Below are positions 9,095-64,000 of a DNA stretch of 64,000 nucleotides, in pieces; positions within the stretch are counted from its first letter, which is position 1, and each line of letters starts with the position of its first letter. The translations under genes and the position numbers were made by a program. The stretch is from the NCBI GenBank assembly GCA_022842935.1, contig JALHOP010000014.1, positions 58,053 through 122,052 on the forward strand, written 5' to 3'. The DNA is from Myxococcota bacterium (GTDB taxonomy: Bacteria > Myxococcota > XYA12-FULL-58-9 > JALHOP01). Below the pieces are notes generated by a model that made no database searches, had not been told where the DNA came from, and saw only the letters and a list, made by a program, of their open reading frames with translations.

Positions 9095-9802
9095 TCAGCC
9101 TTCGTCGTCTTCTTCGCCGTCCGGCTTCTTTCCGAGGGGCAGATTGTCGATGTAACCAGAGTGGCGCAGATACGCGCGCAGTCGGCTGCGCAGCCGTGAC
9201 TCGGCGGTGCGAACCTTCATGCGGGTGCTACCAATGGCCTCCGCCGTCTCTTCTTGGCCGCGACCTTCGGCGAAGCGCAACACGAGCAAGCTACGGTCGT
9301 GCTCATCGAGGTCGCCCATGAACTTGTCGATGAGCGTCTTGAGCTCGGTCGTCTCCATCTTGGTGTCTTGTGATGGAGAGGGCTGGCCGTAGAGGAGCCC
9401 CGTGAACTCCTCGGTGACCTCGTCGTCCATGACGGTGAGGTGGCTGCGCTCATCGGAGCCCGAGATGTATTCACTGAAGGCGATTTCGCGATTGCGGAAC
9501 TGGTTGATCACCATGTTGCGCGCGATCGCGAGCACCCAGTTGGTGAACGAGTAGGCGCCGTTGTACGAGTTGCGCGCCTTCGCTTCGAACGCCCGCCGGA
9601 AGACCTCTTGCACGGCGGACTTCAGCTCACTCGGGTCCTGGATACCCTTGAAGTAGAAGTTGCCGGTGGCGCTGCGGAAGCTGAAGCCCTTGCGCAAGAA
9701 CGACGTCACACCCGGCGCGTAGTGCCGGTAGACCTCGTCCATCGCCTTGCGATCGCCCTTCTTGAAGGCCTCGAGGAGCTTTGGATTCTTGGCAAGAAAC
9801 AT
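9095..9802 (-). CDS. RNA polymerase sigma-70 family (ECF-type) sigma factor
   Basis: 235 aa. Region-2-like FTNWVLAIARNMVINQFR and region-4 HTH LLVLRFAEGRGQEETAEAIGSTRMKVRTAESRLRSRLRAYL. Confidence 0.8.
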   Translation of the reverse strand: MFLAKNPKLLEAFKKGDRKAMDEVYRHYAPGVTSFLRKGFSFRSATGNFYFKGIQDPSELKSAVQEVFRRAFEAKARNSYNGAYSFTNWVLAIARNMVINQFRNREIAFSEYISGSDERSHLTVMDDEVTEEFTGLLYGQPSPSQDTKMETTELKTLIDKFMGDLDEHDRSLLVLRFAEGRGQEETAEAIGSTRMKVRTAESRLRSRLRAYLRHSGYIDNLPLGKKPDGEEDDEG

Positions 9803-9890
9803 GGAGCGTTAGTCCACGCTACGTAGCGCGAGATCCCTCTATGAAGCCAGGAAAACGAAAGCACCAGGAACCTTCTCGAGCCCAGCGAAC

Positions 9891-9919
9891 GGGGATGGAG
9901 GGGAATGGAGGGAATGGAG
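9891..9919 (+). repeat. Three tandem copies of a 9-10 bp unit GG(G)RATGGAG in the sigma/lexA divergent intergenic region
   Basis: Read directly: GGGGATGGAG GGGAATGGAG GGAATGGAG, followed by GAACCAGGAAC which echoes CACCAGGAACC at about 9862. Confidence 0.6.
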
Positions 9920-9979
9920 GAACCAGGAACTTTCCCGCCGACGCGACTCCGCGTACGCGCTTGACGGTCTTTTCCATTG

Positions 9980-10010
9980 CTGAACATTTGACACGTGTTC
10001 AAGCGTTCAG
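9980..10010 (+). promoter_or_regulatory. Candidate LexA (SOS) operator: CTGAAC / GTTCAG half-sites
   Basis: CTGAACATTTGACACGTGTTCAAGCGTTCAG lies 13-40 nt upstream of the lexA start. Contains the GTTCAG half-site and inverted CTGAAC; about 13 of 17 match to the myxobacterial-type consensus CTRHAMRYBYGTTCAGS as recalled. Confidence 0.35.
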
Positions 10011-10022
10011 TAATTTTGCGGA

Positions 10023-10721
10023 ATGACCGACCGCCCCGAGCTCACCGATCGCCAGCGCGAAGTTTATGAGTTCATTCAAGATCGCATTCGGGCCTGGGGC
10101 TATCCGCCAACGATCCGCGAGATCGGCGAGCACCTCGGTATCCGCTCCACCAACGGCGTCGCCGACCACCTCAAGGCGCTAAAGCGTAAGGGTTATTTGC
10201 AGCAGCAAGACATGAAGTCGCGCACCCTCATGCTGGTCAACGAAGAGCCGACCAACAACAAGCGCTCGGAATCCGTCGGCAGCAACGTCGTGCGCGCCCT
10301 CTTCCCGTCCAGCGGTAGCGGTCGCAGCCTCGAGATCCCCATCCTGGGTCGGGTCGCCGCAGGTGAGCCCATCCTTGCCGAGGAGCACGCCGAGGGGTCG
10401 GTCGTCGTCGACTCGATGTTGGTCGGCGACGGCAAGAAGCTCTTCGCCCTCAAAGTCGTCGGCGAGTCCATGATCGACGACGGCATCTACGACGGCGACT
10501 ACATCTTCGTACGCAAGCGGGCCCACGCCGAGCCCGGCGAGATCGTCGTCGTCATCATCGAGAACGAAGCCACCGTGAAGCGATTCTACCCCGAAGGCGA
10601 TCGCATCCGCCTGCAGCCGGCCAACGCCAGCATGAAACCCATTTACGTCGACAAGAAAGACTTCAAGCAGGTTCAAATCATCGGACTCGTCGTTGGAGTC
10701 TATCGCCGCCTGCCCGGCTGA
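10023..10721 (+). CDS. lexA: LexA repressor (SOS response transcriptional repressor / S24 peptidase)
   Basis: 232 aa. N-terminal winged HTH (YPPTIREIGEHLGIRSTNGVADHLKALKRKGYL), Ala-Gly cleavage site (VAAGEP), catalytic Ser in GESM and Lys in VKRF. Confidence 0.9.
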   Translation: MTDRPELTDRQREVYEFIQDRIRAWGYPPTIREIGEHLGIRSTNGVADHLKALKRKGYLQQQDMKSRTLMLVNEEPTNNKRSESVGSNVVRALFPSSGSGRSLEIPILGRVAAGEPILAEEHAEGSVVVDSMLVGDGKKLFALKVVGESMIDDGIYDGDYIFVRKRAHAEPGEIVVVIIENEATVKRFYPEGDRIRLQPANASMKPIYVDKKDFKQVQIIGLVVGVYRRLPG

Positions 10722-16713: not shown

Positions 16714-19134
16714 ATGTTTCGCAGCGTGAGCGACGGGATCGCCTACGGAGACTACTACCTGCTCGGACGTCTCGGGACCGGCGGTACGGCCGAGGTGTTC
16801 CTGGGTAAGCGGCTGGGTGACGGCGTAGGCGGAGCTCTATTCGCCGTGAAGCGTCTGTTGACGCAATTCTCGGGCAACCCCGACCTCGTGAAGACGTTTC
16901 AGGACGAGTCGCGCATCGCTAGCGTCCTATGGCACCCCAACATCGCCGAGACGGTCGATTCAGGGATCAACAACAAGCAGCACTTCCTCGTCATGGAGTT
17001 CATCCACGGCAAGGACTTGAAGAGCATCCAGCAGCGGGCACGCAAGGGCGGTTCCCGACTTCCTTACGTCGCGAGCGCTTACATCATCGCGGCCATTGCC
17101 GACGCTCTCGAATACGCGCATGAGTGTGAGCCCCCCGAAGGTCTCGGCACCTCGATTGTCCACCGCGACCTGAGCCCGCAGAAGATCTTGGTCTCATACG
17201 ATGGCGTTCCGAAAGTCATCGACTTCAGCGCCCGCGACGCAAAGAGCCGCGGCATCGAGGGGCGTATTGGGTCCATCAAGGGGCGGTTTGGATACCTTGC
17301 GCCCGAACAGGCAACGAGCAACCCGGCCGACCGACGCTCGGACGTCTTTTCACTCGGGGTCATCCTCTACGAGCTGACCACTGGCATGGCTCCGTTCAGA
17401 GGCGGGAGCGACGCCGCAACCCTCGGCAAGGTCGCGCGCGCCAGCTTCTCCCCGCCCGAGCTTGTGAACGCCAGTATGCCTCGGGTGCTCGGGAAGATCA
17501 TCGAACGTGCCATGCAGCGCGACCCCGACAAGCGCTACCAGACGCCAAACGAAATGGCCGAGGCCCTGCGAACCTTCATCCGTGATGACGGACAGGTCAT
17601 CGACAAGGGCGAGTTAGCTCGACTCGTGCGTGAGCTCTTCGCCGACGACTACGAGCGCGAGAAGGTGCGTGTCGAACAATACCGCCGCCTGACGCCGCCG
17701 GCTGCTTCGGGGTCGGGTAACAAGCCAGTAGCGATGGGCGACAGCATCACTGCGGGTGGCCCCGAAGGCTCGCTCGCGAGCAACACGCGAGACGAACGCA
17801 CGACCGCTAACGAGCACTCGTTCGCTAGTATCGACGACGACGACGACACCGGGGTGAATGACGCCGCCGGCGACCCCATCGCCGAACACTTCGAGCGGAC
17901 CGATACCGGCATCGCTGACACGGGTTTGCATCAACAACTCGTGGACAGCGGCGTTCACCCCATCATCGACACGGGCGCGCATCACGCGACGCCCAAGACC
18001 GACGTGCACGACGTGGCCGGCACGAGTGTCCACGATGTCCCACCGGCCTCGGTGGTCATGGCCGCCGAGGCGGTGCAAAGTCAGGACTTCGAGGTCTCGA
18101 CCGAACAGCTGTCGCTGATGCCCTTCGAGCCCACTCCCAGTGTCACCACGGCGACGGCGGTCCCCGATGCCGACACGAAGCCGGTGGCCGGTGACTTCGA
18201 CTTGTCATTCGACGAGGTCATCCCGCAGTTCGACGACGAGCCAACCGGTGCCGACGACCCCGGCGCGCGCGCCCCCGCGAGCAAGGCATCGGACTTCCCT
18301 GAGAACCCGTGGGCGCAAGAGTCGGCGGCATCCACGGTGAGCTTCAACATACCGCCCGCGGCTCTAGGAGAAGGTCCGACGGTGGTGGCCGATCCGCTGT
18401 TCGGCAATCAGGGTCCGAGTGACTCTCTCTTCCAGATCAAAACGCCAACCGCCGCTTCACCGTCGATCATCTTCGAGGCGAAGACAAAGGTCTACGAAGA
18501 GAGCATCGCGGACCTCGTTCGCCGCACGCAGCCGTCGGGCTTTGGCGTAGAGATCACAAAGCAAGACAACGCGCCGGCGAAAGCGGAAAAGGCGCAGATG
18601 TCGGCGGTGATCGCCGCTGTAAGTCCGCTCGCCGCTGCCACCACCGTCGAGCCGCTCCACGCGGCCACGACCGTGCAGCCGATGCACGTCGCCACTGTGG
18701 TGGCCACGCCCCCCGAAAAGGCGATCACCGAGGTCGCGCTACCTCAACCCAAGCCCAAGAAAAAGAAGGGACGCGGACTCTCGAAGATCGAAGAAAACGA
18801 GGGCGACACCGAGACCGACAAGGTCAACGACGACGACCTCTTCCTGGACGACGAAGCCTTCGCGAAATCGGGGCCGCTCCCTGACGAGTTCGAGGCACCG
18901 AAAACCACCGCGAACGCCGTTCCCGGCGCCATGCTGGCCGAGGCGTCCGAGCCACCCGAGGACCTCGACGAATACGAAGAAGTCGGTCGCTTCTTTTCAC
19001 GCAGTGATCTGATCACCCTCGTGGTCGCCGCATTCATGGGTCTTCTCATCATGACGGCGTCATATGTGTACGCCCTCAACGTGCCCCTGCCCGATCAACC
19101 CTCCACCGGCGAGCAGTTCGACGGCAGTCACTGA
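16714..19134 (+). CDS. Ser/Thr protein kinase-like protein with C-terminal TM anchor (atypical catalytic motifs)
   Basis: 806 aa. Gly loop LGTGGTAEV, FAVKRL (Lys), HRDLSPQK instead of HRDLKPxN, DFS instead of DFG, YLAPEQ; long acidic linker; C-terminal TM LITLVVAAFMGLLIMTASYVYAL. Confidence 0.8.
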   Translation: MFRSVSDGIAYGDYYLLGRLGTGGTAEVFLGKRLGDGVGGALFAVKRLLTQFSGNPDLVKTFQDESRIASVLWHPNIAETVDSGINNKQHFLVMEFIHGKDLKSIQQRARKGGSRLPYVASAYIIAAIADALEYAHECEPPEGLGTSIVHRDLSPQKILVSYDGVPKVIDFSARDAKSRGIEGRIGSIKGRFGYLAPEQATSNPADRRSDVFSLGVILYELTTGMAPFRGGSDAATLGKVARASFSPPELVNASMPRVLGKIIERAMQRDPDKRYQTPNEMAEALRTFIRDDGQVIDKGELARLVRELFADDYEREKVRVEQYRRLTPPAASGSGNKPVAMGDSITAGGPEGSLASNTRDERTTANEHSFASIDDDDDTGVNDAAGDPIAEHFERTDTGIADTGLHQQLVDSGVHPIIDTGAHHATPKTDVHDVAGTSVHDVPPASVVMAAEAVQSQDFEVSTEQLSLMPFEPTPSVTTATAVPDADTKPVAGDFDLSFDEVIPQFDDEPTGADDPGARAPASKASDFPENPWAQESAASTVSFNIPPAALGEGPTVVADPLFGNQGPSDSLFQIKTPTAASPSIIFEAKTKVYEESIADLVRRTQPSGFGVEITKQDNAPAKAEKAQMSAVIAAVSPLAAATTVEPLHAATTVQPMHVATVVATPPEKAITEVALPQPKPKKKKGRGLSKIEENEGDTETDKVNDDDLFLDDEAFAKSGPLPDEFEAPKTTANAVPGAMLAEASEPPEDLDEYEEVGRFFSRSDLITLVVAAFMGLLIMTASYVYALNVPLPDQPSTGEQFDGSH
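18631..18715 (+). repeat. Imperfect about 27-30 bp tandem repeat x3 inside the kinase linker (encodes AATTVEPLH / AATTVQPMH / VATVVATPP)
   Basis: Read directly from nucleotide and protein. Confidence 0.4.
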
Positions 19135-63355: not shown

Positions 63356-64000
63356 ATGACCACGCGAAGTGTCCTCGGTTGCATTGTTGCTGTTGTGATC
63401 GGCGCTCCGCTTTCCCTCGCCCGCGCTCAAGCGAGCCGCATCAACTTCAGTGCTTCCGAGGGCACTCCACAATATCAGCCGCTCAACCCGCTGTTTTATC
63501 CGGACATCAAGATGCAGATGGTGATGTACTCGGACACCAGCGGCACCACGATCGTCGACCAGTACGATTGCAGCATCCTAACGAACTGCGTGCCGGGCAG
63601 GAATGGAGCTTTCGGGAGTTACCGCGCGACCTTCTCCCTCCCACCAGACACGAACGTCGAGATGGTGGCATCGACGTGCGGTGGCACGGACCCGGGCGTG
63701 ACGACTTGCTTCGACGCCCCGCTGCTGGTCACGCTGCGCGTGAAGGTGGGACGCAACCGCATCGAGCTCATCGGCTCCGACAGCGGCAAACCGGCCATTG
63801 TCACGGCGGGTGTCGACCTGAAGTTCCTCATCGGCGGCAACCCCAACGCGTTTTGGCAAACCGGGAACAGTGGAGCCAATCGCTTCCCGCAAGGCACGTG
63901 GAACCCCGTGGTCACCGCAATGCCCACCGGCAACTGCCACCCCGAGCCCGTCGACCCGAACTTCTCGGTGACCGTCACCGACGATCTCGCAGCCCCCATC
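63356..64000 (+). CDS. Secreted Cys-containing hypothetical protein, 3' partial (runs off window end)
   Basis: Not in the ORF track because it has no stop. ATG near 63356 (+/-1), signal peptide MTTRSVLGCIVAVVIGAPLSLARAQA, strong GC3 bias, open to 64000. Confidence 0.55.
   Translation, partial: MTTRSVLGCIVAVVIGAPLSLARAQASRINFSASEGTPQYQPLNPLFYPDIKMQMVMYSDTSGTTIVDQYDCSILTNCVPGRNGAFGSYRATFSLPPDTNVEMVASTCGGTDPGVTTCFDAPLLVTLRVKVGRNRIELIGSDSGKPAIVTAGVDLKFLIGGNPNAFWQTGNSGANRFPQGTWNPVVTAMPTGNCHPEPVDPNFSVTVTDDLAAPI

Follow-up and report, generated by a model that had tools for sequence, protein, structure and literature searches.

The region considered here separates two divergently oriented genes in the genome of an uncultured member of the Myxococcota: a gene for an ECF-type sigma-70 family sigma factor and lexA (Table 1). 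Both lie within a 64-kb stretch of DNA (hereafter, the window). In profile searches, the sigma factor scored 73.1 bits against TIGR02937 (cut-off 42.9) and matched the Pfam families Sigma70_r2, Sigma70_r4, and Sigma70_ECF; it contains regions 2 and 4 only, the domain content that defines ECF (group 4) factors, and reached the cut-off of none of the equivalog models. Homologs with 60–98% identity to this protein adjoin lexA in at least 10 related loci. No anti-sigma gene was recognized beside the sigma factor gene, and the ORF downstream of it (8226–8900, minus strand) is without a family match. A literature search for a described ECF–lexA gene pair returned nothing relevant, and searching positions 9600–10200 for Rfam families gave no match at E ≤ 1.

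The LexA encoded in the window is, as judged from its domains and residues, intact. The DNA-binding domain (PF01726, LexA_DNA_bind; 85.4 bits) and the peptidase domain (PF00717, Peptidase_S24; 117.1 bits) both score above their curated cut-offs. The cleavage site VAAGEP, with its Ala113–Gly114 bond, aligns with A84–G85 of Escherichia coli LexA, and Ser149 and Lys186 align with the Ser/Lys dyad of that protein (S119 and K156). Both the cleavage site and the dyad are invariant across 31 homologs.

Table 1. Features of the sigma–lexA intergenic region and its flanking genes, in window coordinates.
Feature	Position	Strand	Basis or remark
ECF-type sigma-70 family sigma factor gene, 235 aa	9095–9802	−	divergent from lexA
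Candidate sigma promoter: CTGGC (9850 to 9846), 18 nt, GCTACG (9827 to 9822)	9822–9850	−	inferred
CGAAAGCACCAGGAACCTTCTCG, containing the first CCAGGAAC copy (9864–9871)	9856–9880		probable relic of a terminator hairpin
58-nt insertion, holding the tandem array and the second CCAGGAAC copy	9890–9947		MAFFT alignment; this genome only
Tandem array: GGGGATGGAG (9891–9900), GGGAATGGAG (9901–9910), GGAATGGAG (9911–9919)	9891–9919		units of 10, 10, and 9 nt
Perfect 10-nt palindrome CGCGTACGCG	9950–9959		conserved in the nearest subclade
Distal half-site CTGAAC (9980–9985), abutting the −35; candidate weak second box CTGAAC-ATTT-GACACG	9980–9995	+	
−35 hexamer TTGACA of the lexA promoter	9988–9993	+	comparative
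Main LexA box GTGTTCAAGCGTTCAGT, predicted	9995–10011	+	fills the 17-nt spacer; matrix and conservation
−10 hexamer TAATTT	10011–10016	+	17 nt past the −35, 6 nt before the ATG; direct reading
lexA, 232 aa	10023–10721	+	TIGR00498, 226.7 bits (cut-off 110.95)

Comparisons were made with related loci, which are numbered here with the prefix L. Close relatives of the window carry a LexA that is 97% (L001/L058) or 93% (L002, L059) identical, or a sigma factor that is 98% identical (L061); L038 is 100% identical, but begins inside lexA and so lacks the intergenic region. A metagenome scan with a single LexA protein recovered mostly distant relatives (52–57% identity), which were used for the weight matrix described below and are uninformative on the tandem array.

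The promoter of lexA can be read from this comparison. In 30 related lexA upstream regions, TTGAC(A) is followed by a spacer of 16–18 nt that ends in GTTCAG, and then by a TA-rich hexamer. The TTGAC(A) stands at the same offset from the LexA box in nearly all lexA upstream regions of the clade and in the Myxococcus xanthus lexA probe, TAAYKT or TTAACT occupies the −10 place in relatives, and orthologous LexA boxes lie at −28 to −30 in all relatives of the subclade. A sigma-70 promoter scan of positions 9700–10100 reported no promoter, neither for lexA nor for the sigma factor gene. For lexA, this silence arises because the −10 hexamer TAATTT matches the consensus at only three of six positions, and the promoter assignment therefore rests on the comparative evidence.

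Directly upstream of lexA, an initial annotation of this DNA had described a cluster of CTGAAC and GTTCAG half-sites, consistent with LexA autoregulation. The cluster is present: the string CTGAACATTTGACACGTGTTCAAGCGTTCAG corresponds exactly to positions 9980–10010, lies 13–43 nt upstream of the lexA ATG, and forms an inverted repeat whose 16-nt arms are 81% complementary. The GTTCAG hexamer is not enriched in the window (34 occurrences on both strands, against ~31 expected), and it is the arrangement and position of the half-sites, rather than the hexamer count, that is non-random. A search of the window for the perfect palindrome CTGAAC-N4-GTTCAG found none, even with two mismatches allowed.

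A LexA weight matrix was constructed from 25 boxes, comprising sites from relatives and two M. xanthus sites with demonstrated LexA binding; the window, L001, and L002 were left out of the training, and the training sites themselves score 13.7–23.2 bits. The main box of the window scores 19.27 bits—a value part of which may stem from common descent and constraints on the promoter, not from contacts with LexA, as most training sites are orthologous lexA promoters—and falls inside the training range. It ranks first among the ~128,000 positions of the window (per-position p = 2e-7; 0.026 such matches expected per window), and the runner-up, at 12.86 bits, is located within an ORF. The matrix is specific: in 406 kb of loci, nearly all matches of 13.5 bits or more sit just upstream of lexA. 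These matches include second boxes, absent from the training set, that lie exactly 16 nt downstream of the first in L005–L015, and also lexA promoters of distant lineages (L018–L036). No second SOS gene with a LexA box was found in the 64-kb window using the matrix. The best box of the window occupies the −35/−10 spacer of lexA, as does the gel-shift-verified lexA box of M. xanthus, and no better site lies elsewhere; on both counts, the proposal of autoregulation in the initial annotation is supported.

The main box can also be compared with the M. xanthus SOS box consensus, CTRHAMRYBYGTTCAGS (Campoy et al. 2003; Sheng et al. 2021, PMC9705874). It agrees at 13 of 17 positions on the plus strand (9995–10011) and at 14 of 17 on the minus strand (9994–10010), with a perfect GTTCAG half; the four mismatches to the strict consensus are G1, T5, A8, and T17. 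Searching the window with the strict consensus at up to three mismatches returned 23 scattered matches, the best of which (56295–56311) is inside a 1791-aa ORF and was dismissed as a chance occurrence. In M. xanthus, a lexA probe that reads TTGACT and then CTACACGTCTGTTCAGG binds purified LexA in gel shift, boxes with two mismatches show weak or no LexA binding, and the recN box, one of those with two mismatches, is not bound (PMC9705874). The lexA promoters of M. xanthus and of the window, both from Myxococcota, share an invariant right half GTTCAG with a degenerate left half, and in each the 17-nt spacer after TTGAC(T/A) is taken up by the box. However, the window box is off the consensus at the four positions given above, a distal CTGAAC is added upstream of the −35, and the mRNA of the window gene is apparently leaderless.

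The distal CTGAAC is itself part of a conserved arrangement. The conserved block upstream of lexA starts exactly at this hexamer in 11 distinct relatives; CTGAAC-N19-GTTCAG occurs in 14 loci, with 8–10 of the central bases variable, and CTGAAC-N20-GTTCAG occurs in the distant L021, whose LexA is only 48% identical. As a match to the matrix, the distal box reaches 8.69 bits (minus strand; rank 14 in the window), a level at which ~10 matches are expected per window, so that what argues for it as a LexA site is its conservation. It is possible, if somewhat unlikely, that the distal CTGAAC instead serves as an upstream extension of the promoter or is bound by some other factor, with LexA bound as a single dimer to the spacer box. 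Such a reading would accommodate the low score of the distal 17-mer and an inner half, GACACG, that matches GTTCAG at two of six positions; it would also accommodate L004–L011 and L013–L015, which are without the distal CTGAAC and have their second box downstream. It does not readily explain why CTGAAC and the invariant GTTCAG are exact reverse complements of each other, at a spacing that is fixed in the 14 loci and one nucleotide longer in L021, nor why CTGAACATTT, by direct reading, agrees with the M. xanthus consensus at every one of its ten left-hand positions. The distal CTGAAC, 19 nt from GTTCAG, probably recruits a second LexA dimer; two abutting 16-bp boxes, each with a strong outer and a weak inner half, would then cover the −35 hexamer and the spacer.

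This geometry has partial counterparts in known systems. The Cheo box of Gram-positive bacteria has the consensus CGAACRNRYGTTYC, with the core GAAC-N4-GTTC (PMC2248561). CTGAAC and GTTCAG are the halves of an extended form of this palindrome, and the matrix also detects GAGAACnnnnGTTCAG sites in the lexA promoters of distant lineages; in contrast to the Cheo box, the window holds no 16-mer in which both halves are good, and the perfect halves stand 19 nt apart, each with a degenerate inner half. Double LexA operators are also known: E. coli lexA has two SOS boxes side by side, and in colicin genes the boxes overlap. The window resembles these in having two neighboring LexA sites at an autoregulated promoter, and L005–L015 have two full tandem boxes at a spacing of 16 nt. 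In the subclade of the window, however, no second full box covers the −10 and start site; the second site is just a half-site, upstream of the −35, and its occupancy by a second dimer is a prediction.

The short distance between the −10 hexamer and the lexA start codon suggests a further feature of this promoter. The hexamer ends at 10016 and the ATG begins at 10023, with neither a Shine–Dalgarno sequence nor an alternative start, and an upstream start of lexA is precluded because of an in-frame TAA at 10011–10013. The distance from −10 to ATG is 6–8 nt in 11 distinct sequences, the intervening bases differing, and it is kept in L062 even though the ATG there lies seven codons further upstream in the protein. 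The lexA mRNA of this subclade consequently appears leaderless, with transcription most likely beginning at the A of the ATG. The lexA of Mycobacterium tuberculosis is likewise leaderless, its transcription start having been shown experimentally to be its translation start (PMC2897130); the phylum and the promoter differ from those of the window, where leaderlessness is deduced from the placement of the −10 hexamer in the 11 sequences. A 43-codon ORF that runs from an ATG at 9895 to a TGA at 10024–10026, overlapping the lexA ATG, was also considered and rejected; it crosses the promoter and starts in a non-conserved insertion.

That insertion contains the most conspicuous repeat of the intergenic region. 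The three tandem units reported in the initial annotation are present at 9891–9919. Tandem Repeats Finder returned a single array here (9891–9920; period 9, 3.1 copies, 85% matches, score 46), a repeat search recovered three copies at spacings of 10 and 9 nt, and GGAATGGAGGGAATGGAG, an 18-mer with an expectation of 0.03 occurrences in the window, is found there once. Eight other Tandem Repeats Finder rows of similar score (41–72) fall in the same 64 kb; as a repeat, the array is real but modest. Alignment with MAFFT shows a 58-column gap at this place in L001 and L002, and the insertion is likewise absent from L058, L059, and L061. An alternative and equally valid placement of the insertion is 9864–9922, with CCAGGAAC on both flanks, and the partial self-similarity at a spacing of 59 nt exceeds that of all 500 shuffles. 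The array is absent from all more distant relatives too; in L056 and L057, only ~100–115 nt separate the sigma factor gene from lexA, and the full operator is kept.

Because the 58-nt insertion is missing in the closest relatives and the intergenic regions of distant ones are short, the array appears to be a recent duplication or slippage product, presumably neutral, rather than a conserved regulator site. Its absence from relatives indicates that it is dispensable there, but does not establish that it is inert in this genome. The initial annotation had offered two descriptions, an additional regulator binding array or a slippage-prone tract, and had proposed comparison with related genomes; as far as sequence can show, the array is lost in close relatives, and the second description suits it better. 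We consider it very unlikely that the GGRATGGAG array binds an additional regulator, such as a response regulator that reads direct repeats spaced by one helical turn, and that such a regulator modulates the promoter of sigma or of lexA in this strain. Three direct repeats spaced 9–10 bp apart between divergent promoters, with an 18-mer unique in the window, are what such a site might look like; yet the array is missing in all four closest relative sequences (L001/L058, L061, L002, and L059) and in every more distant one, and its distances upstream of the −35 of lexA and of the candidate −35 of sigma are ~70 and ~40 nt, respectively. Additionally, the window has no other intergenic copy of the array motif, the lone extra GGAATGGAG, at 63600, being in coding sequence.

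Two further accounts of the array fare no differently. That it is a phase-variable contingency repeat, its copy number switching sigma or lexA expression, is very improbable: the repeat is short, tandem, and situated in an intergenic region that carries promoters, and its presence differs between close genomes, but it consists of just three imperfect units of 9–10 nt, located neither between a −35 and a −10 nor within an ORF, and the relatives show zero copies and a larger 58-nt difference rather than variation in copy number. An assembly artefact or a G-quadruplex-forming element might be suspected from a G-rich repeat with several GG and GGG runs in a metagenome-assembled genome. Either is highly unlikely, given that the flanks of the insertion are unique, that the insertion includes non-repetitive sequence, and that its runs of three or more G number only three, one short of the four required for a canonical quadruplex.

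The CCAGGAAC copies are in part a consequence of the same event. Both members of this near-duplicate element, to which the initial annotation drew attention, are present, at 9864–9871 and 9923–9930. They are embedded in a 25-nt direct repeat (76% identity, spacing 59 nt), and CCAGGAA is found a third time at 9847–9853. The pair is partly a by-product of the 58-nt insertion and partly what probably remains of a terminator hairpin. L055 and L003 have an additional gene of 190 aa, followed at the homologous place by an intact hairpin, GAAAGCACCnGGTGCTTTC, and the first CCAGGAAC copy is probably the relic of such a terminator hairpin; L059 reads GAAAGCATCAGCGGCC there and does not keep the element. 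Reading CCAGGAAC...CGTA as an ECF promoter (GGAAC-N-CGT) was rejected, with a spacing of 21 nt, an orientation toward lexA rather than the sigma factor gene, and loss in L059. Between the insertion and the operator, the palindrome CGCGTACGCG is invariant in the window, L001, L002, L003, L055, L059, and L061, amid variable flanks, and is absent from L056 and L057.

On the side of the sigma factor gene, the pattern CT[AG]G[CT]-N17/18-G[CG]TAC[CG] is found upstream of the gene in the window, L001, L002, L003, L055, L056, L057, L008, and L017, and also in L063, where the sigma factor gene is away from lexA. This differs from the ECF-type autoregulated promoter GGAAC-N16/17-CGT. The sigma factor gene probably has its own promoter within ~50 nt of its start. 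We find it very improbable that LexA also represses the divergent sigma factor gene through the shared region and that this gene belongs to the SOS regulon. Its adjacency to lexA is kept in at least 10 loci, many homologs of sigma and of LexA come from contigs of equal length, and in L056 the distal half-site is only ~10 nt from the candidate sigma −35, as such control might lead one to expect. However, the distance from operator to sigma start ranges from ~75 to ~180 nt, a whole extra gene intervenes in L003 and L055, and ~130 nt separate the operator of the window from the candidate promoter of sigma. In assembly JACRCV01, sigma and lexA are on different contigs and the region upstream of sigma has no LexA box (best match 4.9 bits); with no box where the gene is unlinked from lexA, SOS control of the sigma factor gene was rejected.

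Taken together, these data make it probable that positions 9980–10022 are an ordinary Myxococcus-type self-repressed lexA promoter, and that the array region stands outside this unit and has no conserved function. The right-hand ~45 nt of the intergenic region would be the whole lexA control unit, a sigma-70-type promoter (TTGACA, 17-nt spacer, TAATTT) with its spacer taken up by GTGTTCAAGCGTTCAGT. LexA bound to GTGTTCAAGCGTTCAGT would block RNA polymerase and so repress its own gene, and upon DNA damage RecA-stimulated self-cleavage at Ala113–Gly114 would lift the repression.

More tentatively, and with some doubt on our part, the lexA promoter of this subclade may have been remodelled, from tandem full boxes followed by a leader to a leaderless form with a composite half-site operator bound by two dimers. 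The ancestral layout would have had full boxes in the spacer and over the −10 and start site, and then a leader with a Shine–Dalgarno sequence. In the new layout the downstream box would have been lost, and CTGAAC and GTTCAG, exactly 19 nt apart, would bracket the −35 and the spacer, with two LexA dimers sitting cooperatively on a 31-bp composite palindrome with weak inner halves. If true, the remodelled operator would represent an unusual LexA geometry and a natural case in which an operator has turned over while the promoter stayed in place.

This work locates the promoter and operator of lexA in an uncultured Myxococcota lineage, which is of small import beyond annotation, and extends the M. 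xanthus-type SOS box to ~30 further lexA promoters. Of mild interest are the apparent loss of the mRNA leader together with the relocation of the second LexA site, and the very strong conservation of an ECF-type sigma factor beside lexA. The array serves as a reminder that conspicuous intergenic short tandem repeats can be recent and lineage-specific. The matrix, with its invariant GTTCAG, C at position 6, and T at position 2, is usable for predicting the SOS regulon in these genomes.

The intergenic region lies between a divergent ECF-type sigma factor gene and lexA, and its features are collected in the table below. The Ala113-Gly114 cleavage site, Ser149, and Lys186 of the window LexA align with A84-G85, S119, and K156 of the Escherichia coli protein, and the cleavage site and Ser/Lys residues are invariant in 31 homologues, on which grounds the window LexA looks functional. 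The closest proteins in the databases are encoded by metagenome-assembled genomes of uncultured Myxococcota ("Deltaproteobacteria"); G+C content of the window is 64%. Elsewhere the window encodes an SseC-like secretion translocon protein (583–2046), a Ser/Thr kinase (16714–19134), a protein resembling the TLC ATP/ADP transporter (50031–51236), and a 1791-aa protein of no recognized family (51800–57175), which together raise the possibility of a lifestyle dependent on a host or prey.

Features of the sigma–lexA intergenic region and flanking genes (window coordinates)
Feature	Position	Strand	Details
ECF-type sigma factor gene	9095–9802	−	TIGR02937, 73.1 bits (cut-off 42.9)
Intergenic interval	9803–10022		220 nt
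Direct repeat, 25 nt			contains both copies of CCAGGAAC; spacing 59 nt
Tandem array	9891–9920		TRF score 46, 3.1 copies
Perfect 10-nt palindrome CGCGTACGCG	9950–9959		18–20 nt upstream of CTGAAC
Distal CTGAAC	9980–9985	+	reverse complement of invariant GTTCAG
−35 TTGACA	9988–9993		lexA promoter
Spacer CGTGTTCAAGCGTTCAG	9994–10010		lexA promoter
−10 TAATTT	10011–10016		lexA promoter
lexA	10023–10721	+	TIGR00498, 226.7 bits (cut-off 110.95); Pfam LexA_DNA_bind and Peptidase_S24

Related loci were drawn from species-representative genomes (lexA loci L001–L037), metagenome contigs (lexA loci L038–L054), and exact-protein look-ups (L055–L064). LexA identity to the window is 97% in L001 (L058, from a different sample, carries the identical allele), 93% in L002 and L059, 89% in L055, 87% in L003, 81–85% in L056, L057, and L060, 66–74% in L004–L015, and 36–57% in lineages further off. 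L061, a short contig, includes lexA only in part; its sigma factor is 98% identical to that of the window.

The half-site cluster upstream of lexA is a predicted promoter and operator containing a candidate LexA site, and it forms an inverted repeat with 16-nt arms (around 9976–10014). Nearly all lexA upstream regions collected share one layout: TTGAC(A), a 16–18-nt spacer ending in GTTCAG, and a TA-rich hexamer. The sole experimentally studied relative, the Myxococcus xanthus lexA promoter, also has the box directly behind the −35; in the probe that was shifted by purified LexA, TTGACT is followed immediately by CTACACGTCTGTTCAGG (PMC9705874). A sigma-70 promoter scan made no call for the window lexA promoter, because the −10 agrees with consensus at only three of six positions.

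As the window box, GTGTTCAAGCGTTCAGT, fits the strict M. xanthus consensus CTRHAMRYBYGTTCAGS (PMC9705874; also listed in PMC2248561) at just 13 of 17 positions, or 14 when read on the opposite strand, a weight matrix was built from 25 boxes (23 lexA promoters of relatives and two LexA-binding M. xanthus boxes), with the window, L001, and L002 left out of training. The matrix is specific: across the 406 kb of loci retrieved, sites scoring 13.5 bits or more lie nearly all directly upstream of lexA; untrained hits include lexA promoters of the distant lineages L018–L036. The window box scores 19.27 bits (training range 13.7–23.2) and ranks first among ~128,000 window positions, with an exact per-position p of 2e-7, or 0.026 hits expected per window; the runner-up, at 12.86 bits, falls within coding sequence. 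The initial annotation had proposed LexA autoregulation, against which a weak matrix score and a better site elsewhere would have counted; because the box is strong and the window holds no better site, autoregulation is well supported, with LexA binding at the box inferred.

Conservation in the window's subclade begins precisely at the distal CTGAAC. Fourteen lexA promoters have CTGAAC-N19-GTTCAG, with differences among them in the central 8–10 bases, and an N20 version is found in L021, whose LexA is just 48% identical. As a 17-mer, the distal site scores 8.69 bits, which by score alone is chance level for the window; given the fixed spacing and conservation of CTGAAC, CTGAAC-ATTT-GACACG is a candidate for a second, weak LexA site directly adjoining GTGTTC-AAGC-GTTCAG. 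Binding of two LexA dimers to the lexA operator is plausible, if somewhat short of probable. More distant relatives lack the distal CTGAAC and instead carry a full second LexA box over the −10; L012 carries both. In L005–L015, this untrained second box (up to 23.1 bits) follows the first at a distance of exactly 16 nt and overlaps the −10, which would give tandem operators with a 16-nt period; an example is GTAAACATATGTTCAGT in L006 (23.1 bits), and L012 reads GTTCAG-TTAA-CTGAAC. In L011, CTTAACACGGGTTCAGT (343–360) is a further LexA-like site, near-palindromic and scoring 14.2 bits on one strand and 13.6 on the other; it lies ~400 nt upstream of lexA and may belong to another gene.

The lexA transcript of the same subclade appears to lack a leader. 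In the window, 10016 is the last base of the −10 and the ATG begins at 10023, and an in-frame TAA at 10011–10013 precludes any start further upstream. Among the upstream regions of L001, L002, L003, and L055–L062, the −10 and ATG are separated by 6–8 nt in 11 distinct relatives, with varying bases between them; the spacing holds even in L062, where the ATG adds seven codons to the protein. No Shine-Dalgarno sequence is present upstream of lexA in the subclade, and the more distant L004–L015 have leaders of 30–100 nt with GGAG. Such a start is not unprecedented, as lexA of Mycobacterium tuberculosis has been shown by experiment to be leaderless (PMC2897130). A 43-codon plus-strand ORF (9895–10026) is probably spurious, running through the promoter from a start that is not conserved; its ATG lies within the tandem array, and its TGA overlaps the lexA ATG (ATGA).

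The repeats reported in the initial annotation (the array, the CCAGGAAC direct repeat, and the inverted repeat) are all present. Its suggestion that the array binds an additional regulator is unsupported: aligned with the window, L001, L002, and L003 show a 58-column gap spanning the entire array and the second CCAGGAAC, and the insertion is missing from L058, L059, and L061 as well, leaving 158–162 nt between the genes in insertion-free close relatives versus 220 nt in the window. The single copy in L001 aligns with the window stretch spanning the second CCAGGAAC through CGCGTACGCG, and the 59-nt-spaced self-similarity exceeds 500 of 500 shuffles; these data suggest a local duplication, after which the 9–10-nt unit underwent slippage. 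Further findings weigh against any conserved function of this stretch. In L056 and L057, the genes are just ~100–115 nt apart, yet the full operator is kept; CCAGGAAC is not preserved in L059; the array occurs once in the window, and its TRF score does not exceed those of eight other short arrays found there; and no Rfam family matches the intergenic region. Additionally, L003 and L055 carry between sigma and lexA an extra 190-aa ORF, without a Pfam match, terminated by the strong hairpin GAAAGCACCnGGTGCTTTC (ORF and hairpin at 823–1395 in L055; homologous position in L003), of which CGAAAGCACCAGGAACC in the window (9856–9872; stretch 9856–9880) looks like a relic. The array is best read as recent, nonconserved spacer DNA, though it may still have some effect particular to this strain. 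The palindrome CGCGTACGCG is unchanged, between variable flanks, in the window, L001, L002, L059, L061, L003, and L055; GCGTACGC was found in L060 too.

The sigma factor is very strongly conserved, with 60–98% identity in the clade and 68–98% among many Myxococcota genomes; in L055 its conservation exceeds that of LexA (98% versus 89%). It often adjoins lexA, in at least 10 loci, an adjacency that looks like conserved synteny. For the window sigma, no recognizable anti-sigma gene was found and no NCBIfam equivalog exceeded its cut-off. A pattern kept upstream of the gene, CT[AG]G[CT]-N17/18-G[CG]TAC[CG] (9850 to 9822, minus strand), is a candidate sigma-gene promoter that matches neither the sigma-70 consensus nor the GGAAC...CGT consensus usual for ECF factors; it recurs in L063 (about 1950–1990), a locus in the same assembly as L006 whose sigma gene lies on a different contig from lexA. 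There is no evidence for LexA control of the sigma gene, since the operator lies at varying distances from the sigma start, from ~75 nt up to an entire intervening gene, and the L063 sigma upstream region contains no LexA box (top score 4.9 bits). As read from sequence, the window region is a putative autoregulated Myxococcus-type lexA promoter with two local variations, what appear to be a leaderless start and a relocated second half-site.
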